A stretch of DNA of 64,000 nucleotides from Bacillales bacterium (GTDB taxonomy: Bacteria > Bacillota > Bacilli > CAJFEE01), in contig JAQSYP010000002.1 in NCBI GenBank assembly GCA_029256085.1, positions 343,342 to 407,341 on the forward strand. The letters are read 5' to 3'. Positions 1,044-51,900 of the stretch are shown piece by piece. Every line of letters starts with the position of its first letter. Position 1 is the stretch's first letter. Both the position numbers and the translations under genes were made by a program. The notes under the pieces were generated by a model, which searched no databases, was not told the origin of the DNA, and worked only from the letters and a program-made list of their open reading frames with translations.

Positions 1044-1388
1044 GTGAGTTATATGTTGTTTGTTGTAGGTATTTTAGCTTTTATTTCTGCATCAGTTTTT
1101 ATTATGAAAAAAAGAAATGTTATCAGTCCATTCTCAAAAGGAGCTTTTCTGGCACTATTTGTTTCATTGCTAGCTACAATTTGCTTAGGGCAAAATTACA
1201 CCGAAAGTTTAATTCCGGAAATACATGACGGGATTGGAATTTCTAACCAATTAGCTTATTGGATTATTGGGGAAAGAACATGGTCTGTTGAATTATTCAA
1301 ACAATATTTTGATAACTCAATATATCTGAATCTGTTTTTAATTTTCATCTATCCTTTGGTATTAATATTAGAACCTAAAAATAAGTGA
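1044..1388 (+). CDS. Hypothetical integral membrane protein (3 TM)
   Basis: 114-aa ORF with three hydrophobic segments. Confidence 0.7.
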   Translation: MSYMLFVVGILAFISASVFIMKKRNVISPFSKGAFLALFVSLLATICLGQNYTESLIPEIHDGIGISNQLAYWIIGERTWSVELFKQYFDNSIYLNLFLIFIYPLVLILEPKNK

Positions 1389-1467
1389 ATTAAATTCTTG
1401 AATAACACAAAAAAGTTATGTAACTTTTTCTTCGATAAATACAGTTTTCAATTAATGAGGCGGATGA

Positions 1468-1664
1468 ATGAGAAAAGCTTTGATTAGACTTATAACAATT
1501 ATTATAGTATTAGGGTCTGGCTATTATTATTTTAATCGGTCGGTTCTACTCCGTTAATTCCCATTGGTTTAATGGCAGCAATGTCTTTTATCTGGAAATC
1601 TGAACCGTTTAGTTTCATTGCATTATTAGTTGTCTCAATTCCATGGATTTATTTGCGAAAATGA
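1468..1664 (+). pseudogene. Frameshifted small membrane-protein remnant
   Basis: GAGGCG RBS, ATG 1468, MRKALIRLITIIIVLG... stops at 1557; hydrophobic continuation PLIPIGLMAAMSFIW...WIYLRK* in another frame to 1664. Confidence 0.4.
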
Positions 1665-1693
1665 ACTGGTAATGCTGTGTAAAATAAACTGCT

Positions 1694-2104
1694 TCAATTT
1701 CCCTCACTATTATTTTCTATTGAAAAAACATGACCATTTTTCAAATAATTAATCTCATTCTTTTCAGTAATTTGTCTTTTTCCTTCATATATAAACATTT
1801 GTGAAAAGCCGTTATTAGATTTGTAATATGAATACTTAATTTTTGGTTCATTCATAAACCTTACACTCACATAATAATCACTAATTTTTATATCATAATT
1901 TCCCTTCATTTCCTTAATATCTGAAGAGTTTAATTCATATTCTTTCTCAATAGTTTTTAAAAAGGTGTTTTCTATTTCTTTTCTCCCGCTTTCAGTTCCG
2001 TTATACCCTGTAAAGTAGTAATCGATTCCATGGAATAATAATAATGGAATCAAAGTTGCTATAATGAAAATAATTAGAATTAACTTTATCTTTTTATTTT
2101 TCAT
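1694..2104 (-). CDS. Membrane-anchored protein, DUF3139-like
   Basis: N-terminal TM; EYELNSSDIKE...YYVSVRFMNEPKIKYSY resembles the DUF3139 pattern. Confidence 0.65.
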   Translation of the reverse strand: MKNKKIKLILIIFIIATLIPLLLFHGIDYYFTGYNGTESGRKEIENTFLKTIEKEYELNSSDIKEMKGNYDIKISDYYVSVRFMNEPKIKYSYYKSNNGFSQMFIYEGKRQITEKNEINYLKNGHVFSIENNSEGN

Positions 2105-2145
2105 AAAATCCTCTTATCAATTAGTTTTAATTTTATTACTCAGCC

Positions 2146-2844
2146 CTAATTCTTTTTGGGTTTATTTAATTCACGAATTAATTCTCTTTCTACCTCGCCT
2201 ACACTATCCTTCTTTGATGTATTTTTTTGCAATTCCTTTTCAGATATAGGTTTCTTTCCTTTAACGACTATCTCATAACAACCATTTAAGTCAGTGTATA
2301 TTACTTGAAGAGACGTAATGTTATAGTTATTACCTAATTTGTTTAGTATTTCTTTAGTTGTTTTGGAAGGGGCTTTTTGACTATCGTTACGAGAGATTTT
2401 ATCACGGTTTATAATACCTAAAATATAAAGCATTTGAGAGGTTTTAAGTTTAAAAATATTTTTTGAATAGTTGCCATTTGCTAAAATCTCAGTATAAATA
2501 TCTGCTAAAGGCAATTCAATATTGTCATTATAAGATTTACTCAAATTGATGAAATCCTTTTGGAATTGTTCATTATAATCCTCAGAAACTCTTTCGTCGA
2601 AAATTGTATTATTAAAAAGCTTATAGGAGATTTCACTGTCTGTTGGGGACAATTTAGTAATATAGGAGGAAGATTTTAGATTATATTGTGGTATTTGAAC
2701 TTCCCCTTGTGCGCCATATACTTGTTTTACATAATTCTCTATTTTTACTTTTGCAATATAGTTACCAAAAGGAATCCCATTGAAAATTGAATAGAATAAT
2801 ATCATAAAAGAAATAAAAATTAGTGCTATTTTATTATCATTCAT
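2146..2844 (-). CDS. Membrane-anchored hypothetical protein; paralog of 13500..14249
   Basis: GGGGG RBS; shared blocks PFG..IAK.KIENY..QVYG and LGN.YNI.SLQVIYTD. Confidence 0.8.
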   Translation of the reverse strand: MNDNKIALIFISFMILFYSIFNGIPFGNYIAKVKIENYVKQVYGAQGEVQIPQYNLKSSSYITKLSPTDSEISYKLFNNTIFDERVSEDYNEQFQKDFINLSKSYNDNIELPLADIYTEILANGNYSKNIFKLKTSQMLYILGIINRDKISRNDSQKAPSKTTKEILNKLGNNYNITSLQVIYTDLNGCYEIVVKGKKPISEKELQKNTSKKDSVGEVERELIRELNKPKKN

Positions 2845-2871
2845 AAGATTCCCCCTATTAAAAACAAATGT

Positions 2872-3339
2872 TTAGTCAGTCAACTTCGAACCAGTAAGTA
2901 TTTTAAATAGTTCTGCTGACTTGTTCTTGCCTAACTGTGCATATTTGTTTTCAAAAAAATTTATAAGCTCCACTTGGTCTTTATCTGGACTTATCCAAAG
3001 TCGATAAGGCAGTGCTTCTACAAATATTAATTTTTTAGTATTAGGTTCAAATAAGAATTTGTAATCCTCGGGACGAAACATTTGAACTTTAGCGTTTTCC
3101 CAATCAACGCTTTCTAAAATATTTCTTACTTTTTTTACGTCAGACTTATTAGTAACTTCCTTAAAGTCCTCAAAGTTATTGTCATTACCAATACGCTTTT
3201 GAACTTCAATTTTCTGTTCCTCTAACTGGTTTGAACAACTTGTTGTAAACATTAATACTATTCCAATGAAAGCTAATAAGTATTTAAACCTTTTCACTGT
3301 AACCCAACTTTCTAAATTGCCAATTGATAACCCCAACAC
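2872..3339 (-). CDS. Putative lipoprotein (true start possibly GTG 3297)
   Basis: Basic residues, hydrophobic stretch, then TTSC; EVTNKSDVKKVRNILESVDW domain recurs in neighbours. Confidence 0.7.
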   Translation of the reverse strand: MLGLSIGNLESWVTVKRFKYLLAFIGIVLMFTTSCSNQLEEQKIEVQKRIGNDNNFEDFKEVTNKSDVKKVRNILESVDWENAKVQMFRPEDYKFLFEPNTKKLIFVEALPYRLWISPDKDQVELINFFENKYAQLGKNKSAELFKILTGSKLTD

Positions 3340-36193: not shown

Positions 36194-36628
36194 TTGAACA
36201 AAAATCAAACTAAATTGGACATGCTATTATTTATTTCATGGGCAGCATCATTAATAGCTACACTTGGAAGTCTTTTCTTCTCAGAAATTATGAAGTATAT
36301 ACCATGTTCTCTTTGCTGGTATCAGCGCATATTTATGTATCCATTTGTCGTAATTTTAGCTATGGCAATGGTTAAAAAGGATTATAAGGTTTACTCTTAT
36401 AGCATAGCTTTATCTGGTATTGGATTAGTTATTGCACTTTATCACACACTATTACAGAAAGTTCCTTTTTTACAGGAAAATTCTTTAGACTGTGGTATCG
36501 TACCTTGTACTACAGACTACATTGATTGGCTTGGCTTCATCACAATACCTTTTATGGCACTAGTTGCCTTTACAATTATTTTTGTGTGTATGGTGTACAT
36601 GCGCAAACTTATTAAGGAGGAAAAGTAA
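36194..36628 (+). CDS. bdbC: DsbB-family disulfide bond formation protein
   Basis: GSLFFSE, PCSLCWYQRIFMYP and second Cys pair CGIVPC. Confidence 0.9.
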   Translation: MNKNQTKLDMLLFISWAASLIATLGSLFFSEIMKYIPCSLCWYQRIFMYPFVVILAMAMVKKDYKVYSYSIALSGIGLVIALYHTLLQKVPFLQENSLDCGIVPCTTDYIDWLGFITIPFMALVAFTIIFVCMVYMRKLIKEEK

Positions 36629-36632
36629 TAAT

Positions 36633-37097
36633 ATGAAAAAGATTGTCATTTTCGCAGTAATTTTAGTTGCATTATTTGGAGCAATTGCATTTGTAACAAT
36701 GCAATCAAATAAAGATGCGTCTGAAGGTAATCCATATGGAAAAGAAACACTTCATCCTGAAACAATTAAAAGCTTAAAGGACCCTAATTATCAAAATGTA
36801 ATTACTCCTGAGCAACTTGAAGAAAAAAATGCTGCAGGTGAGCCTGTAACTGTTTATGTTTTCTCACCATTATGTAAATATTGTAAGGAAGCAACTCCTG
36901 GTTTAATGTCAGCTTCAAAAGCAGTTGGAACGGAAATTAAAATGATGAACGTTCTTGAATACGAGGACATGTTTAATAAGCTAGGTATTGAAGGAACTCC
37001 GACATTACTACAATTTAAAGGCGGGAAAGAAGTAGCTCGTGTTAAAGGTAATGTAGGCGAAGAAGGATTCAAGCAGTTCCTAGAAGCAAATAAATAA
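36633..37097 (+). CDS. Membrane-anchored thioredoxin-family protein
   Basis: AAGGAGG RBS, ATG 36633; N-terminal TM; CKYC; GTPT. Confidence 0.88.
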   Translation: MKKIVIFAVILVALFGAIAFVTMQSNKDASEGNPYGKETLHPETIKSLKDPNYQNVITPEQLEEKNAAGEPVTVYVFSPLCKYCKEATPGLMSASKAVGTEIKMMNVLEYEDMFNKLGIEGTPTLLQFKGGKEVARVKGNVGEEGFKQFLEANK

Positions 37098-38742: not shown

Positions 38743-39000
38743 ATCCTTATAATAATTATTAACATTTTATTTTTCACCTTAATAAATATTTAATGTATCC
38801 TACATATTTTCATCATATTATTTGCATAGTTTCTGCAAAATCTTAAATTATATTTATTACATAGTAATACTCTCTCTCTTTTAAAAAACATGTCCCTTTC
38901 CCTTTTCTTTAAAAACGAAATCCCGAGCTAATTAGCTCGGGGTTTTGGTTTGTCTAGAGTAAAAAAAGCTATCTAATTTCTTAGATAGCTTAGTTAATTT

Positions 39001-40851
39001 CTAATTTTCATTCCACTGAATTCCCCAACGGTTCCCGGATGTCCAAGTTCCTTGTAGTGACATACCATTTGGATTATTGTAACTATCATTGTTAATGAAT
39101 GTTCCATCTTCCATCGAAGAGTGGCAGCCCCAACATGAGCTCATGTTAACATATCGTTTAATTGCTGAGGTATCATTTGCGTCAATTAAGGTTGCCTCTT
39201 CGCCTTCTTCTCCTGTTTCAAGAAGCTGCTTGTAATTTTCTTCAGATGCATTTCTCATTACTTTTTGTTCGGTTCCGTGTGCATAGTGACAGCGAACACA
39301 TGAAGTTCTATCGAAGTCAGTTTTATGACGATATCCTGCTTCATAAACCCCACCGTTTGAAGCCCCATCAGATAAATAGTCAGTATGACATGAGATGCAG
39401 AAGTATGACATCGCAGCACCCATTCCAGCAGAAGATGTTAAGCCGTATCTAGTAACGGCTGTTCCGTCTAACCTATTATCAGCATGGTCTTCTAATTCCT
39501 CACCTACTAGAGCACCATTATTAGTTACAAACAATTCTACACCAGATACATTATGTGTAGCGACTTTGATTTTATCTAATTTCACTACGTAAGCACGGCC
39601 AACGTGGCCTGCAACAACGTTGTCTATCCATGCTCCATCTGCACTATATGCAAATGCTTTAACATAATTAACTGTCGTATTTCCATCTTTACCGTTTGAA
39701 ACATTTGTATTATCTATTGTTGCTGAAGCTTCTGTTGTAGTAAAGAAACCGACTGCATAAGATGCATCAATATTGTACTGAAGATTCTCATCAACCCAAG
39801 GCGTCAGATCTGGGATATACTTGAGACTAATTTCATCCCACTTATACACCATTATTACATTACCATCGATTGCAGCTGGTGTTACACCATAATCTGATGT
39901 TTTAAAATAATCAGCTGTAATAACTTGATTTTTAATGTCTTTTAGTTCTGCGTTACTTATATTTGTAAGATGTGTAGTTACATCTGTTCTAAATAATTTA
40001 TATTTTTGGGCTTTTGTTGTTAATTTTAAATCTTCCGGGGCTGAAATATTTTCAACCGGAACTTGCTTTAATAATGTTTCTGTTGTAGCTTCTGGTGTAT
40101 TAAGTAACCCTGCTTCACCAATCGAATTTCCAAGCATTTCATAGCTAGTTGTTGCCATTCCGTTTGGGTTCCAGTGAAGTAATCTATCTGAATAAGATCC
40201 ATGAGGAGAATGACAGCTTGCACAGTTAAACGTCTTGTCCCAGTGCCCATCACCTGTACTGTTACCACCAGGTGCTGCACTTACTTTTATTGATTCACTA
40301 TAAACATCATGCATTGAAACTCCAACTGAAGCAGGAGTTGTTGTTGAAAACATCCCCGCAGTTGAACCGACTTGGAAGCCGTGTGAGTTTATCTCTACTG
40401 ACAAAGTAGAATCTACCATTGGAGTAGTAACATCATAGTCATCGTCTGCTTTCATTGGACGATCAACAATAGTTACGGACGGACCTGTTGAGAAAATCTT
40501 CCCAGATTTAACATCATAAAAACCTAAGCTTCCATCATGGCAAGCGATACAAGTTTTACCAACAGTATCTTGAATTAATAATTTGTTACCATTAGCTGTA
40601 TGCGTCATGTGACAGCTTGCACAAGAGTTTGTATTAGTTTGGTAAGATCCGTGAGTTTTTTGAGCTATACCATTGACATCTTTAACATTTTTAACCAAAG
40701 TTTTAGCTTGGCCCTCAATACCAGTTTCATTTGAGTTAGTTTCATTAACACGATGTGGATCATCTTCAGCCATAGTTAAAATAGGGCTAGTCAATAAAAC
40801 TGCCACTAATGACCCAGTCAAGACCATTGTCTTTAATATTAAATTTTTCAT
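39001..40851 (-). CDS. Secreted hexaheme c-type cytochrome with OmcS-like motif layout
   Basis: Signal peptide ending TMA; CASCH, CIACH, CASCH, CISCH, CVRCH, CWGCH; hairpins at about 38917..38990. Confidence 0.9.
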   Translation of the reverse strand: MKNLILKTMVLTGSLVAVLLTSPILTMAEDDPHRVNETNSNETGIEGQAKTLVKNVKDVNGIAQKTHGSYQTNTNSCASCHMTHTANGNKLLIQDTVGKTCIACHDGSLGFYDVKSGKIFSTGPSVTIVDRPMKADDDYDVTTPMVDSTLSVEINSHGFQVGSTAGMFSTTTPASVGVSMHDVYSESIKVSAAPGGNSTGDGHWDKTFNCASCHSPHGSYSDRLLHWNPNGMATTSYEMLGNSIGEAGLLNTPEATTETLLKQVPVENISAPEDLKLTTKAQKYKLFRTDVTTHLTNISNAELKDIKNQVITADYFKTSDYGVTPAAIDGNVIMVYKWDEISLKYIPDLTPWVDENLQYNIDASYAVGFFTTTEASATIDNTNVSNGKDGNTTVNYVKAFAYSADGAWIDNVVAGHVGRAYVVKLDKIKVATHNVSGVELFVTNNGALVGEELEDHADNRLDGTAVTRYGLTSSAGMGAAMSYFCISCHTDYLSDGASNGGVYEAGYRHKTDFDRTSCVRCHYAHGTEQKVMRNASEENYKQLLETGEEGEEATLIDANDTSAIKRYVNMSSCWGCHSSMEDGTFINNDSYNNPNGMSLQGTWTSGNRWGIQWNEN

Positions 40852-40920
40852 ACCCTATTCTCCCATAACCTTTTTCTGTTTATCTCTATCTATTTATCTA
40901 TTTTTATTTTTATCTATTAA

Positions 40921-40941: not shown

Positions 40942-41034
40942 CATTTAAGTATATATGCTAAATACTACTTTGATGTGTATTTTTTATTAAAGTCAACATA
41001 AAAGCACTTACAATTTTTGTAAGTGCTTTTTGTG

Positions 41035-44000
41035 TTACTTCCAAATAAAGCCGTCGCCCTTAATTAGATCCAAACCATTTAGATTTCCATCTCTGAAATG
41101 AGTTTTTTGATTACTTGCATCTAAACCGTTTCTATAATCAATTGAATAGCCACCAGAAAAAACATACGGTGCAACACCAGCTGGTCTTGTATTTAGTAAT
41201 TTTGATGATGTTTTCCAATCTGCTTTAAGCATCCATGGATTTGTCGCATTTCCTCCCCTGTAACCTGCTGTTGAAACATAATCCGGGTCATCTGCTTTAT
41301 GTTCTTCCCCGTGACAGGTTAGATAGCACTTTCTATTTGACCTACTATATTGTCTAGATCCTCCTACTATATTAGTAGGGAAGCCAATTTTATGGTCAAC
41401 AGAAACGCCATCTCTTTGTTCAGATTCAATCGCGCCATGTGGCCTGTGACATGTTTTACATGGGGTTGATCTTCCTTTAACTTTAAAATTATGAAGATTT
41501 CCAAAATCAGAGGTATTAGCGCCACTACTAAATAATTTGTTTGAGTCATGACAGTCAAAACATAACGCATAGTTTGCTTCACTATAACTAATATTTCCAG
41601 TTGTCACTATATATTTCATTCTTAGACCGTTCGGATATTGTGATCCGTGTGGATTGTGGCACACTTGGCAATCAAACTGTGAATGTCCACGCTTCTCATT
41701 AACATCTTTTCCATTGAATTCAAGAGTCGATGTAGCTGAATTATCTGTGTATTGGAATTCTAATGTAGTTTTATGACATGCGTAACAAAACTCTTTACCA
41801 TTATTAGATATTGCTACTTCTTCAGTAGTAATTGCATTTTTAATTTTTTCTCTTAATAGTGGTTTTATATTTGAACCATGTTTTTCATGACAAGATATAC
41901 ATTTTACTTGTGAGTCACCTGCTATGCCAGATCCTCCGAATACACTGTACATTTTGCTTGAGTTATGCCCTTTATTTAATGCTGGTACATTAGTTTCATG
42001 ATTTCCTCTATAATCGGTTAAATAGTTTGATTGATTAGAGGTAGGAATACTACTGAGTGAAGGACCTTGTAAATAACCATATGATCCTGTATTAGCATTT
42101 CCATGACAGTTCCAACAGAAACCATTTCCGCTCTCATCTTTTTCACTATTTCGATTGAAACTTTGCAACATTCCAGGTGAACTTGGAATTGGAGTACCCT
42201 TGTCTAAATCTTTACCTTTATCATGAGGCATGTGGCAATCGATGCAAGTGATTCTAAATTTTGAAGCCGATTCATCAGTATTAGAATATATCGGATGGTG
42301 ACTAACTTTCTCTGAAGGGTATGCCCCCCCTAATTCGTCTTTAATGTTAAAAGTACTTCCTAAACCATCATGGCATTGTAGACACAATTGATAAATTTCA
42401 ATTTCGTTTAGTAGTTCAGGCTTTTTACCTTTGTGTGTAGAATGACAGTTTTTACACATCTCTGTCTCTTCTGCAAAATCTCCATGTGGTTTTGAGAATT
42501 TAGTAGCACCTGTTGTAAATGTATATGACATCGCTTCAGAGACTGCAACATTCGATGTATTCTTTATTGTATTTGCAATGCTAACAGTATAAGTTCTTTC
42601 AATATTTAAAAGAGAATCTGGTTTAAATAAAATCTCATTTGGATTCTTTAAAGATAACGTACCAGATACTAATTGATTAGTAGTATTATCTTTAAGAGTA
42701 ACTGCTCCAGAAATTGTTGATAACAATATTGCCTCATCAAACCTAACTAATATTTCTGTGCCTGTTCCTACCCCAACCGAATCAGGTGCAGGCTTAAAAA
42801 ATTTATATTCTGGGGGTGAGTTATCTACATCTGTTTTCTGAGAGACTGTGTTACTATACCCTGATTTATTTCCTGAAGTATCAACAGCTACCATCTTAAA
42901 CTCATAGTTTGTATCAGGATTAAGTTCTTCAATTGTGCCTGTTGTAAAAACATCGCTAAACGGAACCTTTTTCACAAGAAGATTATTTGCTAATACATCT
43001 ATTTCATATCTATCTAAACCCGTATTATCTGTCGAGCCTGTCCAACTTAAAGAAACAGTATTTGTTGTGAAGTCAGTTACTGTCAAATTTGCAGGCGAAG
43101 TCGGGGGTATTGAATCAGGCTCAGGCGTATTTACAGTAATTATTTCTGTAGGTGCAGAATGATATTCACTATCGTTCACAGTAACAATTCTAAAGAAATA
43201 TTTACTATTTGGTGATATTACACCATTAACTCTGAAATTCGTGAAAGTAGTCTCACCGACTTGTTGATATAAACTACCATCTTGACTCATGTAAACAATA
43301 TATTTGCTAATATTTGTTCCACCTGCTGGTAGCCAATTTAGATCTACAGAGGTTGGCGTAATTGCGCCTACGTTCACTTCAGTTACTTTCTCAGGTGTCG
43401 AAATTGGTGTTATACCTGGTACACTAATAGGTAATGAAGTGACGGTTGGGCTTGTTTGATTTCTATCATCAATTGCTGTTACCTTGTATGAATAGGTAGT
43501 ACCTGGAACAATACTTGGATCGATAAAACTATTTGTCTCAGACGTACCGATCAGTTCAGTTAAAGTTCCATTAACTCTTTCAATTTTAAATCCTGTTAAA
43601 TATGTGCTATTATAGGCATCCCACTGTAATTCTACCTTTGTATTATTTGAAATTAGGTTTAATATTAATCCTGATGGTGCCTCTGTTAGTGTTGGTACAT
43701 TTATAGGCTTGGTGATAGAAAGATTACTAATTTTTGTAACAATAGTTGATGAGTCACTATCATCATTCTGCATATCATTGCAAACCCTAAGATAATACAT
43801 ACCTTTAGAATAGGCAGTACCATTTTTTAGTTCAAAATTTACATTTAAATTAGAAACAGTTTTAGTAGTATTAGTATAAACGTTTATCCAATTTGTCCCA
43901 TCGGTTGTATAGGATGCTGTATTAGAGTGTATTATTTTTGAAGAATCTGCATTATTAAATGATTTATTTAATGTTAATGAAACCTTTATAGGTCCTCCAT

Positions 44001-44829
44001 TAAAATTACTATCATTTACTTCCATTCCATTGCCACTTTTCAAATTAAAACACGTCTGTCTCGAAGTATTAGAACCAGATGAAGAAATAGACATATCTGA
44101 CGTGCCATTCGCTGTAAAAGTTGTAGAAGTATTACCTGTTTTCTCCCATTGAGTAGAATAATCGTTTCTAACAAACGTTTGACTACCCGTAGCAGTTAGC
44201 ACTGTAGCCCCAGATACAGTAACTGATGAATAGTACGCAGATACATTCCCTGCTTTATCTACTGCTCTTACCTTATACGTATTTGAAGTTTCTGCAGCTA
44301 TTTGTAAATCTTTGAAACTAGTATTACTCGTTACACCAATCCTTGTAGCTCCCTTATAAATTTCATAGTAAGCAATATCAGTATCTGGTGACGCTGTCCA
44401 ATTTATTTTAATAGCACCAGAAGAAGTTACATATGTAATAGCAGTATTTACTGGTAAACTAGGAGCTATCTTATCTGTAACATAAATACTCCTAGCTGCA
44501 CCAATATTAATCACTTCAGGCGATCCTGATCTAGTAGCAACTTCATACTGATATAGAGTATTTGCATTTACATTTGTATCAGTAAATTCTGTTAATGTCT
44601 TATCAACTGAAAACCTTTCTATTTTATCTGGTGATGTTCTATAAATATAGTAACCATCAGCAGCATTATCTGTTTGCCATGTAATTCTAACAGTATTATT
44701 AAGCTGAGTGATTGTGCTAATATCAGGGCCAGCACCAAAAACTTTATAAACATAAGTAGTAATTAAAATCGTCATTAAAAATAATGTAATAATTGAATAC
44801 TTTTTGTTAATTTTCACTAGTTGCACCAC
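41035..44829 (-). CDS. Giant secreted multiheme cytochrome: ~5 FN3 + jelly-roll-like + Ig-like (Big_5/SbsA) + 9 CxxCH + 1 CxxxCH
   Basis: Signal peptide (start possibly GTG 44817); FN3 motifs such as Y.VRAVDKAGNVS; CKNCH, CLQCH, CIDCH, CWNCH, CISCH, CYACH, CQVCH, CFDCH, CKTCH, CYLTCH. Confidence 0.9.
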   Translation of the reverse strand: MVQLVKINKKYSIITLFLMTILITTYVYKVFGAGPDISTITQLNNTVRITWQTDNAADGYYIYRTSPDKIERFSVDKTLTEFTDTNVNANTLYQYEVATRSGSPEVINIGAARSIYVTDKIAPSLPVNTAITYVTSSGAIKINWTASPDTDIAYYEIYKGATRIGVTSNTSFKDLQIAAETSNTYKVRAVDKAGNVSAYYSSVTVSGATVLTATGSQTFVRNDYSTQWEKTGNTSTTFTANGTSDMSISSSGSNTSRQTCFNLKSGNGMEVNDSNFNGGPIKVSLTLNKSFNNADSSKIIHSNTASYTTDGTNWINVYTNTTKTVSNLNVNFELKNGTAYSKGMYYLRVCNDMQNDDSDSSTIVTKISNLSITKPINVPTLTEAPSGLILNLISNNTKVELQWDAYNSTYLTGFKIERVNGTLTELIGTSETNSFIDPSIVPGTTYSYKVTAIDDRNQTSPTVTSLPISVPGITPISTPEKVTEVNVGAITPTSVDLNWLPAGGTNISKYIVYMSQDGSLYQQVGETTFTNFRVNGVISPNSKYFFRIVTVNDSEYHSAPTEIITVNTPEPDSIPPTSPANLTVTDFTTNTVSLSWTGSTDNTGLDRYEIDVLANNLLVKKVPFSDVFTTGTIEELNPDTNYEFKMVAVDTSGNKSGYSNTVSQKTDVDNSPPEYKFFKPAPDSVGVGTGTEILVRFDEAILLSTISGAVTLKDNTTNQLVSGTLSLKNPNEILFKPDSLLNIERTYTVSIANTIKNTSNVAVSEAMSYTFTTGATKFSKPHGDFAEETEMCKNCHSTHKGKKPELLNEIEIYQLCLQCHDGLGSTFNIKDELGGAYPSEKVSHHPIYSNTDESASKFRITCIDCHMPHDKGKDLDKGTPIPSSPGMLQSFNRNSEKDESGNGFCWNCHGNANTGSYGYLQGPSLSSIPTSNQSNYLTDYRGNHETNVPALNKGHNSSKMYSVFGGSGIAGDSQVKCISCHEKHGSNIKPLLREKIKNAITTEEVAISNNGKEFCYACHKTTLEFQYTDNSATSTLEFNGKDVNEKRGHSQFDCQVCHNPHGSQYPNGLRMKYIVTTGNISYSEANYALCFDCHDSNKLFSSGANTSDFGNLHNFKVKGRSTPCKTCHRPHGAIESEQRDGVSVDHKIGFPTNIVGGSRQYSRSNRKCYLTCHGEEHKADDPDYVSTAGYRGGNATNPWMLKADWKTSSKLLNTRPAGVAPYVFSGGYSIDYRNGLDASNQKTHFRDGNLNGLDLIKGDGFIWK

Positions 44830-44940
44830 ACAATTTATTAGTATTTTAATAGAAATTTACAAATTTTTACAAATTTTTACATTTTTTACACACAAGAATT
44901 TATTTTACCATGTTTTTATTAATGTTCAATATAAAAATAA

Positions 44941-44971
44941 AAAAAAGCTGCCGATTATTTAATTCGGCAGC
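44941..44971 (-). terminator. Intrinsic terminator after the 1247-aa cytochrome
   Basis: GCTGCCGA...TCGGCAGC stem with U-tract on the minus strand. Confidence 0.75.
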
Positions 44972-44978
44972 AATAATT

Positions 44979-47900
44979 TTATTTATAGTGCAATCCATCA
45001 GCATTAGCATCTCTGTATCGTAAAAGCCCTAAAGAGTTACGCGCAGTTAACAACTTTGATTCTGTCTTCCAATTTGTCTTTAAGCTTCTTTCAAGTTGTG
45101 CTTGTGTTGGGTTTGTTAAAGGTCTCAAGTTAGAAATTGACTCGGAACCGTGACAACTAGGACTGCATGTAGCGCTTGTCTCACCTCTGTTATACGTTCC
45201 TGGATTAGTAACCGGGAAACCAACTTTGTGTCTTAATGACCCTGTATTTTCAGAAGCTTTTGCCCCATGCATTCTGTGACACCTTTTACAATGTGCATTT
45301 TCTGCTTTTTCATAAAAGTGATATGCATGTGTATTTCCGCGGTCTGATTCAGAAGGTCCACTTGATGTAATCTTATTTAGGTCATGACAGTCTAAGCATA
45401 AAGCTGCATCAGCACTTCGGTTAGAAGTAGATTGTCCAACCGCATAATTCATTCTTAAATAGTTCGGGTATGCTGAACCATGTGGATTATGACAAACTTG
45501 ACAATCAAATTGAGCATGGCCTCCTGTCTCATTTGATACTTTACCATCATAATCATTGAACGCAGTTCCATTGCTACTCCAATCTGAGTAGGTATAGTCT
45601 ACAGCATTTTCATGACATTGATAACAATACTCCTTACCATTACTCGTAACCGCTGCTGGTTTAGGTTCTACATTATCATATTTAATCTGAGTTCTGAGTA
45701 AAGGCTTTAATTCAGATCCATGGTTGTCATGGCAAATTGAACACTTTATCCCAGTAGGTGACGAGTCCTTATGGTTTCCAGTGGCACTGTCAATATAATG
45801 TGATGACTTATAATGATCCATTTTTGATGAATTATGTCCCTTATCATTTTTAGGATAATATGTTTCATGATCTCCACGATAATCATAGTTGTTTATTAGT
45901 GGACCGCCATCTAAATATCCAAAAGAATAAGTAGGACTACCTTCTTTACCATGACAGTTCCAACAGAAATTGTTTCCGGAACCATCAGCTTGTGGTTTAA
46001 CAGTATATTCGCCTGTAGCAGAGTCCTTTACACCCTTATTAAAACTCCACAACAGCTTTACTTCTGAAGAAAGTGGTTGACCAGTATCCAAGTTTCTTCC
46101 ACGGTTGTGTGGTTCATGGCATGAAATACAAGTTAATTTGAAATTTTTACCTGACTCATCCTTCTCTTCTTGAGTAGCTGTATATATTGGATGATGACTG
46201 TTTTTTTCTGTTGGGTAAGCGCCTAACTGATCTTTAACATTGTATGTGCTACCTGTTCCGTCATGGCATTGGAAACACAGATTAAATATTTCAGTTTGAT
46301 TTAATAGTTTTGGTTTCTTACCTGTGTGAGTACTATGGCAGTTCTTGCACATTTCCGTTTCATCTGCAAAATCACCATGAGGTCTTGAGTGTACAGTTTC
46401 ACCTGTTGTAAAAGACCAAACAATATTTTCAATAAGACTTATTCCAGCACCGTTTTTAATTTCTGTAGTTAATGTTATTTCATACTCTGTGTTTGGTAAT
46501 AATTCATCAGACGGTGTAAATCTTACCTCAGTGGATGCAGTATAAGTGAATGCACCTGGAACTTTAGTTGTTGTACCTTTTTTTACTACAAAAAGTGAAT
46601 TATTATTAATTGAGCTTTGGTTCATCGTATCTGAAAATCTTGCTAAAATAAATGAACCGGTACCTACTCCTGTTGAACCATTTGCCGGTTTACTAAATGT
46701 CACCTCTGGTGGAGATGTATCTAAAGCAGTTCTAGTGGGTACCACTACAGATGCTGATGAAGCATTCCCAGATGTGTCAAACGATAAAATTCTAAAGCTA
46801 TATGGGGTATCTTGTGTTAAGTCTTCCAAAGTCACTTTATCAATTGGGTGTGAAACAGTTCTTACAGTTGTCCATACTCCGTCTACATCTTCTTGTATTT
46901 CATAACGGTCAACTTCGATATCATCCGTTGAAAGTCCCCACGAAAAATCAATTGAAGATGAAGTTATATTACTTAATACGAAATTAGTTGGTGTCGTTGG
47001 TGCAATTAAATCTGGTGAAGATGTTGTACCACTAATAACTTGTGTAGGACCAGAAAAATTCCCTAAATCATTTTCTGCTACAACTCTAAAATAGTAAGTT
47101 GTAAGTGGTGATAATCCACTTTCCACTCTATAATTTGTAAAAGTAGTTACGCCTACTGGACTATAAGATGTACCGTCTGTACTCATATAAATTACATATT
47201 TTGATACATCAATAGTTGGAGATGCATCCCATATTAAATCTAATGTTAATGGCGTTACTTTGCTTATTGAACCGTCAATTGGTGGTTGTGGTACAGCCAC
47301 TTCACCATTTTTTTTAGGGACTAAAATCGAAACATTTGAGGTCTGAGTTGAAACTAATCCTCTATCATCAATCGCCTCTACCTTGTACTGGTATGTCACG
47401 TCATTTACACTTTGTGGAACACTAGCGTCTAAAAAACTATTACTTACAGTAGTCCCTATTAGAACATTGTTCCTATATATTCTATATCCGGCTAGATTAA
47501 CGTCACTAGATGCTGTCCAAGACATTTGAACTGTATCATTGTTTGCTCCTAAAGAAAGTGTTGGAACGCCAGGAACAGGTGGTGCTGCATTTGTTGAATT
47601 CAATGTTACTTGTAAATTATCTACATTTAATTCTGACCAGTCTGACCCTCGGCTAGAGGTTGAGAGTGATGCTCTAATTCTTAAGTGATACGTTCCTGCT
47701 GTATTTGTAAGATTTGCAGATGCATTTACATATCCACTAGTACGGTTCCCTGTGTCATTCGTATGAACTGTGCTCCAAGTGCTTGATGATGTTGATTTAT
47801 AATCTATCCAGAAATCGACGTTTTCTCCTTCACCACTTCGATTATCAGCATTGTACCAATTCTTGCTATAACTAAATGAAACTACAGCACTATTTCCACC

Positions 47901-48722
47901 CGCCTCAGACGGAGAAATTGTAAACGCGTTAGTAGTATTTAAAACCGCTTCTGCAGATCTTGTTATTCTATCTCCCGCAACATAAAACCTAGCAGTACTT
48001 CCTAGTGTTAATATTGTGGGGTTCGATCCGCCTGCAGTCCATTGACCAGGAAAATTTTCTGTAAGTTTAACAGTGTTTTGAGTTGACGGTAGTGCAGCTA
48101 ATGTTGTTGTTGACGCATTCGTATAAAATCCCGAAACATTTCCGCTTGTATCTACAGCTTTGATATTATAAGTATAAGCGGTGCTAGAAACTAAGCCATT
48201 TAAATCTCTATACGAATTTGTACTCGAAACTCCGACCTTTACAGAGTTTCTATATATTTCATAAAACTTAACATCTGTTGAAGACGCTGAATTCCAAGAT
48301 AAATCTACAAAATTCGGTCCTGGTACTGTTGAAATTGTTAAATTTGTTGGTAAGGTTGGTGCTGTCAGATCTTTAGTGTAAATCGAATAAGCCTGACTAT
48401 AGTTACTTGACCCACCTTCAACTGAAACAACCTCGTATTGATATAATGTTTGTTCATTTATCGTATTATCGGTGTAAGTTGTAGTTGTAGCATTGTTAAT
48501 TACACCGATTTTTTCAATTTTATCCTTTGATGTTCTGAAAATTTGATATTCCGAAGCACCTGGTACTTCTGTCCAGTTTATTGTAAGACTATTACCTGCT
48601 TGAGTAATGCTAGTAATAGAGGTACCAGCGCTATATACTTTATTTACTAAAGGAATTATAAGTAATGAAATTAGTAATATATTTAAGGTTAACTTGCTTG
48701 TTTTATTTATGTGTTTAGTCAT
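44979..48722 (-). CDS. Giant secreted FN3/Ig multiheme cytochrome, paralog 2
   Basis: AAGGAG RBS; CKNCH, CFQCH, CISCH, CWNCH, CSICH, CYQCH, CQVCH, CLDCH, CKRCH, CSPSCH. Confidence 0.9.
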   Translation of the reverse strand: MTKHINKTSKLTLNILLISLLIIPLVNKVYSAGTSITSITQAGNSLTINWTEVPGASEYQIFRTSKDKIEKIGVINNATTTTYTDNTINEQTLYQYEVVSVEGGSSNYSQAYSIYTKDLTAPTLPTNLTISTVPGPNFVDLSWNSASSTDVKFYEIYRNSVKVGVSSTNSYRDLNGLVSSTAYTYNIKAVDTSGNVSGFYTNASTTTLAALPSTQNTVKLTENFPGQWTAGGSNPTILTLGSTARFYVAGDRITRSAEAVLNTTNAFTISPSEAGGNSAVVSFSYSKNWYNADNRSGEGENVDFWIDYKSTSSSTWSTVHTNDTGNRTSGYVNASANLTNTAGTYHLRIRASLSTSSRGSDWSELNVDNLQVTLNSTNAAPPVPGVPTLSLGANNDTVQMSWTASSDVNLAGYRIYRNNVLIGTTVSNSFLDASVPQSVNDVTYQYKVEAIDDRGLVSTQTSNVSILVPKKNGEVAVPQPPIDGSISKVTPLTLDLIWDASPTIDVSKYVIYMSTDGTSYSPVGVTTFTNYRVESGLSPLTTYYFRVVAENDLGNFSGPTQVISGTTSSPDLIAPTTPTNFVLSNITSSSIDFSWGLSTDDIEVDRYEIQEDVDGVWTTVRTVSHPIDKVTLEDLTQDTPYSFRILSFDTSGNASSASVVVPTRTALDTSPPEVTFSKPANGSTGVGTGSFILARFSDTMNQSSINNNSLFVVKKGTTTKVPGAFTYTASTEVRFTPSDELLPNTEYEITLTTEIKNGAGISLIENIVWSFTTGETVHSRPHGDFADETEMCKNCHSTHTGKKPKLLNQTEIFNLCFQCHDGTGSTYNVKDQLGAYPTEKNSHHPIYTATQEEKDESGKNFKLTCISCHEPHNRGRNLDTGQPLSSEVKLLWSFNKGVKDSATGEYTVKPQADGSGNNFCWNCHGKEGSPTYSFGYLDGGPLINNYDYRGDHETYYPKNDKGHNSSKMDHYKSSHYIDSATGNHKDSSPTGIKCSICHDNHGSELKPLLRTQIKYDNVEPKPAAVTSNGKEYCYQCHENAVDYTYSDWSSNGTAFNDYDGKVSNETGGHAQFDCQVCHNPHGSAYPNYLRMNYAVGQSTSNRSADAALCLDCHDLNKITSSGPSESDRGNTHAYHFYEKAENAHCKRCHRMHGAKASENTGSLRHKVGFPVTNPGTYNRGETSATCSPSCHGSESISNLRPLTNPTQAQLERSLKTNWKTESKLLTARNSLGLLRYRDANADGLHYK

Positions 48723-48907
48723 AGGATGTTCTCCTTGTTTTCGACTTTATTTTACATTATTCGACAACTTATAGCTTAATTTTAACATATTTCCTACTAA
48801 TCTGATGTTAATTTAAGTAATTGTCATATATACTTAATATTTATTATTAATAAGTAATATTTACCATTATAGGCAAGTCGCTCCTTTAAGAAACCTTTCA
48901 TAAAATG

Positions 48908-48939
48908 AAAAAATGCCGAGATAAAATCTCAGCATTTTT
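48908..48939 (-). terminator. Intrinsic terminator after the 1244-aa cytochrome
   Basis: AAAAATGCCGAGAT-AAA-ATCTCAGCATTTTT. Confidence 0.7.
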
Positions 48940-48944
48940 GCATT

Positions 48945-51900
48945 TTATTTATAAAGTAGTCCGTTATTATTTGAGTCTCTATATTGAAGTAAATTTAAAG
49001 ACCTTCTATCAGATAGTATTTTTGAGGACGTTTCCCAATTCGTGTGCAAACTTCTCTTGATTTGTTCATCTGTAGGAGACGTAATCGGTCTTAAGTTTGC
49101 TACTGGTTGATCACCATGACAACTTGGATTACAAGTTGCCGTATTTTCTGAGCGGTTATATGTACCAGGATTTGTAACAGGAAAACCAATTTTATGGTTT
49201 AGATTACCATTATTCTCTGAATCTTTAGCCCCATGTACCCTGTGACATCTCTTACACGTTGCCGTTGGCGTTTTAGTAAAGTGATAACTATGCATACTTT
49301 TAGTTTCAGAATTTACCGTAATTGTTGGACCTGTAGTAACGGAAGTTAAATTACCTTTACTATGACAATCATAGCAAATCGCTGCTGCAACATCAGTGTT
49401 TGAAGACGATTGTCCAACTGCATAATTTAATCTTAAATAATTAGGATTTTCAGAACCATGCGTGTTATGACATACTTGACAATCAAACTGTGAGTGTCCA
49501 CTTCTCTCATTTACTTCTTTACCATCATAATCATTAAATGCTGTACCGTAACTACCCCAATCAGAATAAGTATAGTCAATTGCATTTTCATGGCATTGGT
49601 AACAAAATTCTTTCCCATTATTAGTAATTGTTGCTGTCGAAGAAGTTGTATTCTCAAATGATATATTTCCTCTTAATAGTGGCTTAATATCAGAGGCATG
49701 TTTTTCATGACAAATTGAGCATTTAATATTTGTTGGAGATGAATCCTTGTGCTCAGATCCCTCTATATAATGAGAAGATTTATAGTGATCCATCTTACTT
49801 GAATTGTGCCCCTTATTGTTTTTTGGGAAATTAGTTTCGTGATCACCAATATAATCTACCGTTTTATTAAATGTTCCATCATCTAAATATCCATATGAAT
49901 ATGTTGGACTTCCTTCTCGACCATGACAACTCCAACAAAATTTATTGCCAGAACCAGAGGCCTCAGGTTTCACAGTATAGATATCAGACGCAATATCCTT
50001 AACTCCCTTGTTAAAGCTCCATAATAATTTTGCTTCTGACGTTAAAGATAACCCAGTATCTAAATCCATTCCTCGATTATGCGGCTCATGACAGGAAACA
50101 CAAGACATTGTAAATTTATTACCTTGTTCATCTGTCTCATTAATTGTCTCTGATAAAACAGGGTGATGACTTGTCTTTTCAGCAGGATTTCCAAAGTCAC
50201 CTTTAACATTATAGATACTACCAGTTCCGTCATGACACTGAATACATAAATCAAGTATCTTATCTTGCGTTAGTAAGTTAGTACTTTTTCCTTCATGTCC
50301 GCTATGGCAATTGTTACACATTCCAGTTTCATCAGCAAAGCTTCCATGTGGTTTATTATATAGTGCTTCTCCGGTTGTAAAAGACCATTTAAACTCTTCT
50401 ATTAATCCCATTTCAGCCATGTTTTTAGCTGACGTAGTTATAGTTACTTCATACTCTGTATTTGCATCCAAGTTGACTGTTGGATTAAGAATAAATGCTG
50501 TTTGATTTGTCGAATACGTTGCAGCCAATTTTACCGAAGTTCCTTTTTGTGTGATGAAAAAAGAATCAGAGTTAATAGTTGTAACATTCATTCTATCTGT
50601 AAATTTTGCTGTAATATTCGTTGCCCTTCCGACTTCAATCGATTGATTAGATGGCTTAAAAAATGCAACCTCTGGCGGTGAAGTATCTACTAAAGTTTTC
50701 ACATTCACAACTTGATGTGGAACCTCAGACTTATTTCCTGATGTATCAATTGCAGTTATTCTGAATTTGTAATTTGTGTTTTGTAATAACTCCTTAATAG
50801 ATACGGAATTTTTCGGATGAGCGATAGTATTGACAAGATGCCAGGTACCACTACCATTAATTTCAGCTTCTACTTCATACCTTTCAACACCCTCATTATC
50901 AGTAGATAATTTCCAAGCTAAGTCTACAGAGGAAGACGTTATATTTGTTGCTTTAAAATCAGTTGGCTTAGTCGGACTTGTAGAATCAGCTTCCGAAAAA
51001 GACCCGCTGAAAATTTGCGTCGCACCTGAGAACTCGCCATCTTTATCAACAGCAATTACTCTAAAATCATAAGGTGCAGGATATGAATCATCTTTATTAA
51101 ATTTAAAGTTCGTAAAAGTTGTTACTCCAATAACGCTAAATTTTGTTCCATCGTTTTTAAAGATTATATATTTTTGAATGTCAGGTGAAGGCGACGCTTC
51201 CCAAGTTAAATTCATGCTTATTTTGGTTGGTTTGTCGACAAGACCACCCCCCGGTGCTTGTGGTGGCATTACATCATCCTCATAACTAGGAACAGTGATA
51301 GGAATCCCAACTGTCTGTGCTGTTAAACCTCTGTCATCAATTGCCTCAATTTTATATGTATACTCAGCATCCGAATCTTTAAGTTCAAAACTAGAATCTG
51401 TAAAACTATTATTGACTGTACTTGCGATTACAGTATTATCTCTATAAATCCTATATCCTATCAAATTAATATCAGATGATGCTGTCCATGATAAATTTAA
51501 ATATTTTTTAGTTGCTCCAAGAGATATTTCAGGATTACCCGGAACAGATGGTGCAAAGTTGTTAACATATACTTTTAAATTATCAACTTCAAGTTCAGCC
51601 CAGTTACCAGACGTTTCGTTACTAGTCTTTACAGACATAGTAAATCTTAACTGGTATCTACCCGATGATAAATTAATATCATCTGAAAACTGAACATCGT
51701 TTGTAGTTGCTGTATTACTAATTGTAGCCATAGTTGTCCACTCACTTGAACCTATAGCCTTATACTCGATTCCAAGATTATATGCTTGTCCATTCGAATT
51801 ATTATTATTTTTATTTCCCCAGTTAAAAGAGTAGTCAAAGTTTATTTTAACGTTATTACTTGCATTAGTTTCATTTTCTAGAATTTCGAATGCATAAGCA

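Follow-up and report, generated by a model that had tools for sequence, protein, structure and literature searches.

A putative exported hexaheme cytochrome of the OmcS/CwcA superfamily with an inserted domain, encoded apart from the canonical operon in a soil Bacillales bacterium

Introduction

The hexaheme cytochrome OmcS of Geobacter sulfurreducens (PDB 6EF8 / 6NEF) has been described as coordinating its hemes by histidine at all 12 axial positions, with the ligand of heme 5 donated by the neighbouring subunit (PMC6584659; PMC12954529). A Gram-positive counterpart, the cell-wall hexaheme CwcA of Thermincola (Tfer_0075 / TherJR_1122), was reported by Faustino et al. 2021 (PMC7911101), who called it an OmcS homolog with 18% identity (PMC7911101). 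Here we report the analysis of a hexaheme cytochrome gene at 39001..40851 (minus strand) of a 64,000-nt stretch of DNA, hereafter the window, from a soil Bacillales bacterium (contig JAQSYP010000002.1, positions 343,342 to 407,341; assembly GCA_029256085.1), and compare its 616-amino-acid product with these two systems.

In Geobacter, the NHL-repeat gene GSU2505 is a neighbour of omcS, and a requirement for it in OmcS assembly or expression has been suggested (PMC9070056). For the osc genes, roles in the folding, secretion and morphology of OmcS have been proposed, and omcT, oscC and omcJ have been presented as OmcS paralogs (PMC13194489). CwcA was reported to be insoluble on expression (PMC7911101), and was modelled on 6EF8 as a polymer of 4–16 subunits that spans the peptidoglycan and in which a different subunit may ligate heme 5 (PMC7911101). 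Since CwcA was described in 2021, the idea of an OmcS-like hexaheme wire in a Gram-positive bacterium has already been published, as a model, and how electrons pass the thick Gram-positive wall is to this day described mainly by a model derived from Thermincola. Our literature searches, one of which was too broad, returned no paper pairing "multiheme cytochrome" with "Neobacillus" and no work linking OmcS or cytochrome nanowires to Bacillales, the work found being on Thermincola only.

Results

Sequence features of the 616-residue hexaheme protein

The open reading frame at 39001..40851 starts with ATG and is uninterrupted by stops over its 616 codons. Its product contains 12 cysteines, every one of them inside one of six CXXCH motifs, whose first residues are 77, 101, 210, 485, 518 and 573, and a motif set that takes up all 12 cysteines lies far beyond chance. 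The motifs are spaced by 24/109/275/33/55 residues, the longest interval, of 275 residues, separating motif 3 from motif 4. A match to Paired_CXXCH_1 was obtained with Pfam (E 2.6e-14); Pfam and NCBIfam together gave generic multiheme signatures only, with the DmsE/MtrA-type models far under their cut-offs (TIGR03508 scored 45.7 bits, its cut-off being 192.2). A predicted Sec signal peptide occupies the N-terminus, and no lipobox cysteine, LPXTG motif or C-terminal anchor is present in the sequence. The features of the gene and the protein are as follows.

39001..40851, minus strand: hexaheme c-type cytochrome gene, 616 amino acids, OmcS/CwcA superfamily (open reading frame and translation)
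40860..40864, minus strand: Shine-Dalgarno-like GGGAG, 8 nt 5' of the ATG (sequence)
40768..40851, minus strand: predicted signal peptide, residues ~1-28, MKNLILKTMVLTGSLVAVLLTSPILTMA, then EDD (read from the sequence; cleavage site inferred)
40609..40623, minus strand: heme 1 motif C77-A-S-C-H81, aligned with OmcS C9-H13 via the family profile
40600..40602, minus strand: His84 of CXXCH-x-x-H, at a family position aligned with OmcS His16 (119/120 family sequences)
40537..40551, minus strand: heme 2 motif C101-I-A-C-H105 (sequence)
40369..40506, minus strand: extra segment of ~45 residues, ~116-161, between heme 2 and the AGxF motif (BLASTP gaps)
40210..40224, minus strand: heme 3 motif C210-A-S-C-H214, with APGG before and PHGSYSDRLL after (matches OmcS 124-150, TLTTAPGG...CSSCHDPHGKY)
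39427..40158, minus strand: inserted alpha/beta domain, residues ~232-475, between hemes 3 and 4 (AlphaFold2; no known fold or family)
39385..39399, minus strand: heme 4 motif C485-I-S-C-H489 within GMGAAMSYFCISCHTDY (matches OmcS GQGMSEWCANCHTD)
39286..39300, minus strand: heme 5 motif C518-V-R-C-H522, then Y-A-H525 (matches OmcS 328-335, CLSCHRAH)
39121..39135, minus strand: heme 6 motif C573-W-G-C-H577 (aligned with the final motif of OmcS, ending at residue 404)

The motifs by which an earlier, sequence-only reading of the window had characterized this protein (THGSYQTNTNSCASCHMTH, CIACHDG, AGMF, SMH, APGG, CASCHSPHG, MSYFCISCHTDY, YRH, CVRCHYAHGT and CWGCH) are all present in the translation. 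The extra segment after heme 2 is an alignment gap with respect to both a 509-residue hexaheme paralog encoded in the window and the Thermincola homolog, and a similar segment occurs in two relatives, P0003 and P0004. Judged from its sequence, the protein would be exported, would hold its hemes in a chain, and would take part in extracellular electron transfer.

Relationship to OmcS

Homologs of the 616-residue protein numbered 321 at E<=0.001 among 8000 scored candidates. Four alignments were used for the profile comparisons: A1, of 120 sequences around the 616-residue protein; A2, of 21 sequences around the 509-residue paralog; A3, of 21 compact relatives of A1; and A4, a profile of 46 compact members from all subfamilies. 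OmcS was the top PDB match of A1 (6ef8_A, E 0.0037), of A2 (E 3.9e-6) and of A4 (6ef8_A, E 3.3e-19, 72 bits). The A4 alignment forms one collinear stretch covering OmcS residues 9-405 of 407, from the first heme motif to the last, and its runner-up, 6r2q_A, reached E 1.4e-8 with a fragmentary match. From these profiles, we conclude that the hexaheme family is a remote but genuine homolog of OmcS. The entry 6r2q_A bears the label "cystathionine beta-synthase" in the copy of the PDB that was searched, yet the aligned sequence is that of a CXXCH-rich multiheme cytochrome, and the label looks wrong; 6R2Q is the Shewanella MtrCAB complex.

Conserved candidate heme ligands

In addition to the histidines of the CXXCH motifs, six others (residues 67, 84, 181, 217, 509 and 525) are kept in 119–120 of the 120 A1 sequences, with counterparts in 45–46 of the 46 A4 sequences, which represent the superfamily, and in all 21 A2 sequences of the paralog family. 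Six conserved distal histidines in addition to those of the motifs fit six bis-histidine hemes, as in OmcS, and most likely all six hemes of the protein are ligated in this way, the pairing of individual histidines with hemes being inferred from the sequence. In the A4 profile, "CanCHsth" is aligned with OmcS residues 9-16, "CEGCHTMH" (C9-E-G-C-H13-T-M-H16), so that His84 of the CXXCH-x-x-H motif corresponds to OmcS His16. In OmcS, His16 serves as the intersubunit ligand, completing heme 5 of the adjacent subunit.

Relatives in a conserved operon

An A1 scan of one genome per species matched 150 stretches, 100 of which encode a relative, and retention of the best 80 gave 79 loci. These loci come from Neobacillus, Mesobacillus, Bacillus spp., Anaerobacillus, Evansella, Priestia, Desulfosporosinus, Dethiobacter and Thermincola. 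The NHL, TPR and NapC/NirT proteins of the genome studied here were then compared with the 79 loci by tblastn, the 9 loci shorter than 15 kb being left out of the tally of all three genes. NHL queries matched in 74 of the 79 loci, and among the 70 loci of at least 15 kb, 69 had NHL, TPR and NapC/NirT together, the exception being L091. In 67 of these 69 loci, the NHL gene immediately precedes the hexaheme gene on the same strand; in the other two (L065 and L081), it is located downstream on the other strand. The relatives thus sit in a strongly conserved four-gene module and the 616-codon gene does not, which marks it as a displaced paralog.

In the loci of T. ferriacetica, Pfam showed the order NapC/NirT, TPR, NHL and hexaheme. 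BLASTP aligned the 616-residue protein with the T. ferriacetica hexaheme in two parts, hemes 1-3 (E 5e-36, 42% identity) and hemes 4-6 (E 1e-18). As for a horizontal origin of the gene, we saw no case for it, the G+C content being 37.9% in the gene, 34.5% in the locus and 32.1% in the window.

The inserted domain between hemes 3 and 4

The interval between hemes 3 and 4 was examined by AlphaFold2. When the whole 616-residue protein was modelled with A1, the mean predicted local distance difference test score (pLDDT) was 65.5, with residues ~230-480 at 80-95. Residues 224-482 modelled alone gave a mixed alpha/beta domain with a mean pLDDT of 81.6 and a predicted template modelling score (pTM) of 0.79. 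Searches with this domain returned a best E of 0.27 by Foldseek against the PDB, a best Z of 3.5 with 11 chains at Z>=2 by VIA-align against 48,161 chains, and, in the ESM Atlas, nothing above 0.77 by features and a template modelling score (TM) of at most 0.30. The matches at the top of these searches, to phage tail or baseplate proteins with 89 residues aligned at 4.1 Å, were taken as noise. The sequence-only reading had noted the large insertion, and the structure prediction and fold search now run on it describe a confidently predicted domain without a structural relative in the PDB.

At the sequence level, phmmer with residues 236-470 against 1.84 billion representatives found 4 proteins at E<=0.001, 3 of which are family members. 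The fourth, a 921-residue protein containing PKD-like repeats, reached E 3e-11 when 6 stretches were summed; this similarity is a short repeated stretch, and no conclusion was drawn from it. Across the 120 A1 sequences, the segment between hemes 3 and 4 has a median length of 225 residues (range, 182–320), and the segments share motifs such as PWLYGY and ARAYVVKLD. The inserted domain of ~250 residues is a fast-evolving trait of the subfamily and is not unique to this gene.

Comparison with the 509-residue paralog

The second hexaheme of the window carries its CXXCH motifs at residues 95, 119, 182, 258, 473 and 503, with the longest interval, of 215 residues, between motifs 4 and 5.

54959..56488, minus strand: paralogous hexaheme, 509 amino acids, from another subfamily; an Fn3-like insertion separates heme 4 from heme 5 (alignments, profiles)

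BLASTP aligned the two proteins over hemes 1-3 (31% identity, E 5e-12), and their C-terminal motifs aligned weakly. Comparison of the A1 and A2 profiles by hhalign gave Prob 99.8% and E 1.3e-28. When the comparison was made in blocks, hemes 1-3 gave Prob 99.7% and E 7e-27, heme 4 with the YRH histidine Prob 97.3% and E 2e-11, and hemes 5-6 Prob 97.8% and E 1e-12, the three blocks aligning collinearly. The insert of the 509-residue protein (residues ~300-465) is an Fn3-like unit (YYYxVTAxNxxGES...YxVYRA), different in kind from that of the 616-residue protein, and three copies of this unit are present in some relatives (655-660-residue forms). The A2 profile also matched the phage protein 9vel_C Gp6.1 weakly (E 0.0035).

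The sequence-only reading had described the two proteins as subunits sharing a core and displaying different surface domains, and had raised alternative or mixed filaments, a hypothetical arrangement for both proteins. A shared six-heme scaffold is borne out by the BLASTP alignment over hemes 1-3 and the collinear profile blocks over all hemes, and the large insertions do occupy different places, motifs 3-4 in one protein (275 residues) and motifs 4-5 in the other (215). The picture of a pair needs revision: the genome encodes five such hexahemes, and the 509-residue protein is not the nearest relative of the 616-residue one.

Paralogs elsewhere in the genome

The genome has 2.63 Mb in 17 contigs with a G+C content of 32%, and was scored 100% complete. 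A search of it with the 616-residue protein found four relatives, which brings the hexahemes of the superfamily in this genome to five. The closest is a 657-residue copy on contig 3 with 56% identity, and two further relatives are encoded at C14:426.8-431.4 kb with 41–43% identity. Homologs with 85–89%, 60–61% and 53–56% identity, in other assemblies and on contig 3, retain the same architecture.

The gene of the 657-residue paralog (L002, G000:C3:16943-21628; open reading frame 1219..3192) stands alone and encodes the architecture of the 616-residue protein. Its flanks, judged by eye, are the end of a membrane-transporter-like open reading frame and a lipoprotein solute-binding-like gene, and no NHL or TPR gene was found within the 4.7 kb examined around it.

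A canonical module (L012, G000:C14:425401-443000; genes at C14:425.8-436 kb) lies ~18-29 kb past the right end of the window. It begins with two NapC/NirT-type multihemes (440 and 392 residues), a TPR protein (243 residues) and an NHL protein (322 residues), continues with two A1-type hexahemes (823 and 765 residues), and ends with a TPR protein (167 residues). The interval between the cytochrome loci (L011, G000:C14:407342-425400) is occupied by a long same-strand polysaccharide-synthesis cluster that includes several GT1/GT2/GT4 glycosyltransferases and Wzy-like, Bac_transf and flippase-like proteins.

Genes for cytochrome c maturation were found on contig 15 (G000:C15:33809-40124; L092, L093 and L095), where CcmE, a 669-residue CcmF-like frame and a CcmC-like frame are encoded. 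ResB gave no match in this genome scored 100% complete; in the Bacillus subtilis control, ResB was present and CcmE absent. The presence of CcmE with CcmF-like and CcmC-like frames and without ResB suggests that heme attachment, and hence cytochrome c maturation, probably proceeds by system I, unlike in the B. subtilis control.

Organization of the locus

The genes from 58134 down to 39001 are all on the minus strand. The remaining features of the locus are listed below.

52849..58134, minus strand: tight operon of TPR (57457-58134), NHL (56489-57445), the 509-residue hexaheme, NHL (54059-54955) and an Fn3 protein (52849-54087)
41035..52679, minus strand: three tandem paralogous proteins of ~1250 residues between the two hexahemes (Fn3 repeats, Big_5, multiheme block)
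41000..41030, no strand assigned: palindromic hairpin of 14 pairs just 3' of the stop of the 1264-residue multiheme gene, separating it from the 616-codon gene
38966..38991, minus strand: intrinsic-terminator-like hairpin of 11 pairs, then a T-run, 10 nt past the stop
38922..38941, minus strand: second terminator-like hairpin of 8 pairs (6 G-C), then a T-run

The gaps in the operon are 11, 0, 3 and -29 nt, in the order listed. The NHL proteins (56489..57445 and 54059..54955) and the TPR protein (57457..58134), all encoded on the minus strand, each have a hydrophobic N-terminal segment, and from this they are probably membrane-anchored and outward-facing. A ComK-family gene (58275..58745, minus strand) is located directly upstream of the operon, and a small sigma-70 region-2 protein (58956..59459, plus strand) is encoded divergently from it; both are possible regulators of the locus.

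Each of the three proteins of ~1250 residues has a signal or anchor N-terminus, several Fn3 repeats, Big_5, and a C-terminal block with nine CXXCH motifs and one CX4CH motif. Their genes are separated by gaps of 149–222 nt. By tblastn, the C-terminal block matched in 39 of the 70 related loci. We regard these proteins as candidate wall-spanning or surface multihemes.

The 616-codon gene is the last of the locus and follows the 1264-residue multiheme gene after 183 nt. This gap, with its hairpin, and the two terminator-like hairpins with T-runs agree with the earlier description of the gene as having its own upstream region and terminator. Downstream of the locus are SDR, MsrA, thioredoxin and DsbB-like genes. 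The DsbB-like gene and a gene for a thioredoxin-fold protein with a hydrophobic N-terminal segment (36194..37097, plus strand), ~2 kb from the locus, may form a thiol-redox pair relevant to keeping CXXCH reduced outside the membrane.

Discussion

Proposed role and alternatives

We consider it rather probable that the 616-residue protein is a Sec-exported six-heme cytochrome of the OmcS/CwcA superfamily, in which a linear heme chain carries respiratory electrons outside the membrane. In the proposed mechanism, NapC/NirT-type quinol-oxidising cytochromes encoded ~20 kb away would feed electrons, the six-heme chain would conduct them within or beyond the peptidoglycan of this monoderm, and the protein would work together with the other multihemes encoded in this locus. 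Polymerisation is speculative, and we would give it about the same chance as its absence. If it occurs, subunits would stack head to tail as in OmcS and the modelled CwcA, His84 would complete heme 5 of the neighbour, and the domain of ~250 residues would decorate the surface of the wire.

Several observations weigh against this assignment or add no support to it. Single-sequence PDB searches with the 616- and 509-residue proteins gave no OmcS match. With the A3 profile, 6r2q_A (1.7e-10) and OmcE 7tfs (2.4e-6) outranked OmcS (3.8e-4), and this different order indicates that the ranking of OmcS depends on how the profile is built; the 6r2q_A and OmcE matches to A3 are non-collinear repeats of single motif pairs, and the OmcS match is ordered over hemes 2-6. 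The heme-binding parts of the full-length AlphaFold2 model have a pLDDT of ~35-60 and give no structural confirmation of an OmcS fold. Searches with the whole model listed no cytochrome, the best values being E 0.74 by Foldseek against the PDB and Z 3.4 by VIA-align against 48,161 representatives; as the heme core is poorly modelled without hemes, these whole-model searches say nothing on the OmcS fold. In the ESM Atlas, a compact relative, P0157, fell among generic "doubled CXXCH" clusters from several phyla, none of them named OmcS. The term "OmcS-like" used in the sequence-only reading is supported by the collinear profiles, and not by the single sequence or the modelled heme core. Further, the gene lies outside the NapC-TPR-NHL operon, behind the 1264-residue multiheme gene, and no consensus sigma-70 promoter was found in the 183-nt gap upstream of it. 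The T. ferriacetica hexaheme compared here was identified with CwcA from its heme count and neighbourhood and not through an accession. Finally, the polymerisation of CwcA is a homology model and not an observation (PMC7911101), and the physiological role of OmcS filaments has been presented as disputed (PMC11077965).

The protein might also be a monomeric or small-oligomer electron carrier of the wall, or a terminal reductase, with the same fold and heme chain and no filament, in which the insert anchors it to wall polymers, to a giant Fn3 multiheme, or to a mineral or partner surface. A protein with neither LPXTG nor lipobox would need a binding module to be retained, for which the insert is the obvious candidate, and its fast divergence (4 matches in 1.84 billion representatives) is expected of an exposed binding surface. 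The gene is moreover detached from the NHL/TPR genes of the canonical members and stands beside three giant surface-type multihemes. We nevertheless hold a monomer to be rather unlikely, because one six-heme unit is far shorter than a wall of 20–80 nm, the thickness given by Faustino et al. (PMC7911101), and because His84 and the five other distal histidines are kept in 119–120 of 120 sequences, although a monomer could use them internally.

That the protein is instead a catalytic multiheme enzyme, e.g., a reductase of soluble oxyanions, and not a wire appears very improbable. The matches to octaheme nitrite reductase that point in this direction are weak (E 1.5e-8 to 1e-4 with A4, E 2-5 with the single sequence), partial, and far below that to OmcS; the protein has no CXXCK or other open-site motif, its six distal histidines for six hemes leave no coordination site free, and there are no catalytic partner genes nearby. 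We give equally little credence to a redundant, silent or decaying duplicate without a role of its own. Such a gene might well be one of five paralogs, outside the canonical operon and without a consensus promoter, as is the case here, but this one retains an intact frame of 616 codons, a Shine-Dalgarno site, terminators, all motifs and all ligand histidines, and its homologs retain the same architecture.

A joint reading of the locus goes further than the exported heme chain that we favour, and we consider it quite doubtful: OmcS-type wires through the Gram-positive wall would be built from several paralogous subunits, among which the 616-residue protein would serve as a decorated subunit or else as a cap or adaptor, with its projecting insert deciding which target (mineral, partner cell or giant Fn3 multihemes) the wire binds. 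If true, this would make it the first cytochrome nanowire to be decorated or heteromeric. Apart from this possibility, the locus combines an OmcS/CwcA-type hexaheme with the NHL and TPR companions known from Thermincola and the NHL neighbour of Geobacter omcS, and such hexahemes occur widely among common soil Bacillaceae (Neobacillus, Mesobacillus, Bacillus spp.). Five versions in one genome, with different domains in different loops, offer a natural series on loop tolerance and the function of surface domains, and the distribution of the family indicates cultivable hosts for tests of polymerisation in a monoderm.

Comparison with known systems

Among the paralogs, the 509-residue hexaheme has the collinear scaffold and the same six distal histidines. 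It differs in that the search of the genome with the 616-residue protein matched it only over residues 65-130 (E 8e-10), and in having NHL genes on both sides inside a tight operon.

Two other groups of multiheme cytochromes resemble the family locally. OmcE (7TFS) and other cytochrome filaments, among them 9YUQ, a "putative multiheme cytochrome c", have been published as sharing the insulated heme arrangement of OmcS and show local paired-CXXCH similarity to the family (A3: 7tfs 2.4e-6, 9yuq 7.7e-4), but the matches are non-collinear and consist of single motif pairs, and OmcE has four hemes. The MtrA/DmsE decahemes (6r2q_A; TIGR03508) share repeated paired CXXCH and CxxCHnPHGS motifs; they have ten hemes in contrast to the six of the 616-residue protein, and their matches are fragmentary and repeat one module. 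Membership in either the MtrA/DmsE or the OmcE group was rejected for the 616-residue protein, as the matches are fragmentary and non-collinear.

OmcS, like the 616-residue protein, has six hemes in the same order, and the flanks APGG...CxSCHxPHG (heme 3), GMSxxCxxCHTD (heme 4), CxxCHxAH (heme 5) and CXXCHxxH (heme 1) are common to OmcS and the family. The likeness is visible by profiles only, the motif spacing of OmcS being 38/93/99/89/72 as opposed to 24/109/275/33/55, and OmcS has no large folded insert. The hosts also differ, since OmcS belongs to a diderm with a proposed porin-assisted route and the 616-residue protein to a monoderm. An NHL-repeat gene adjoins the hexaheme in both the OmcS and the CwcA-type lineages.

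CwcA shares with the 616-residue protein its six CXXCH motifs, its occurrence in Bacillota, its predicted secretion and its homology to OmcS, and the Thermincola hexaheme likewise carries extra sequence between hemes 3 and 4, including PWLYGY. In contrast to the Thermincola hexaheme, the 616-residue protein is encoded outside a NapC-TPR-NHL operon, contains ~45 extra residues after heme 2, has 275 rather than ~177 residues from heme 3 to heme 4, and comes from a low-G+C (32%) soil Bacillales host. Taken together, these comparisons place the 616-residue protein as a new, divergent and displaced member of the known OmcS/CwcA kind, of which the fold of the insert and the series of five paralogs are the most interesting aspects.

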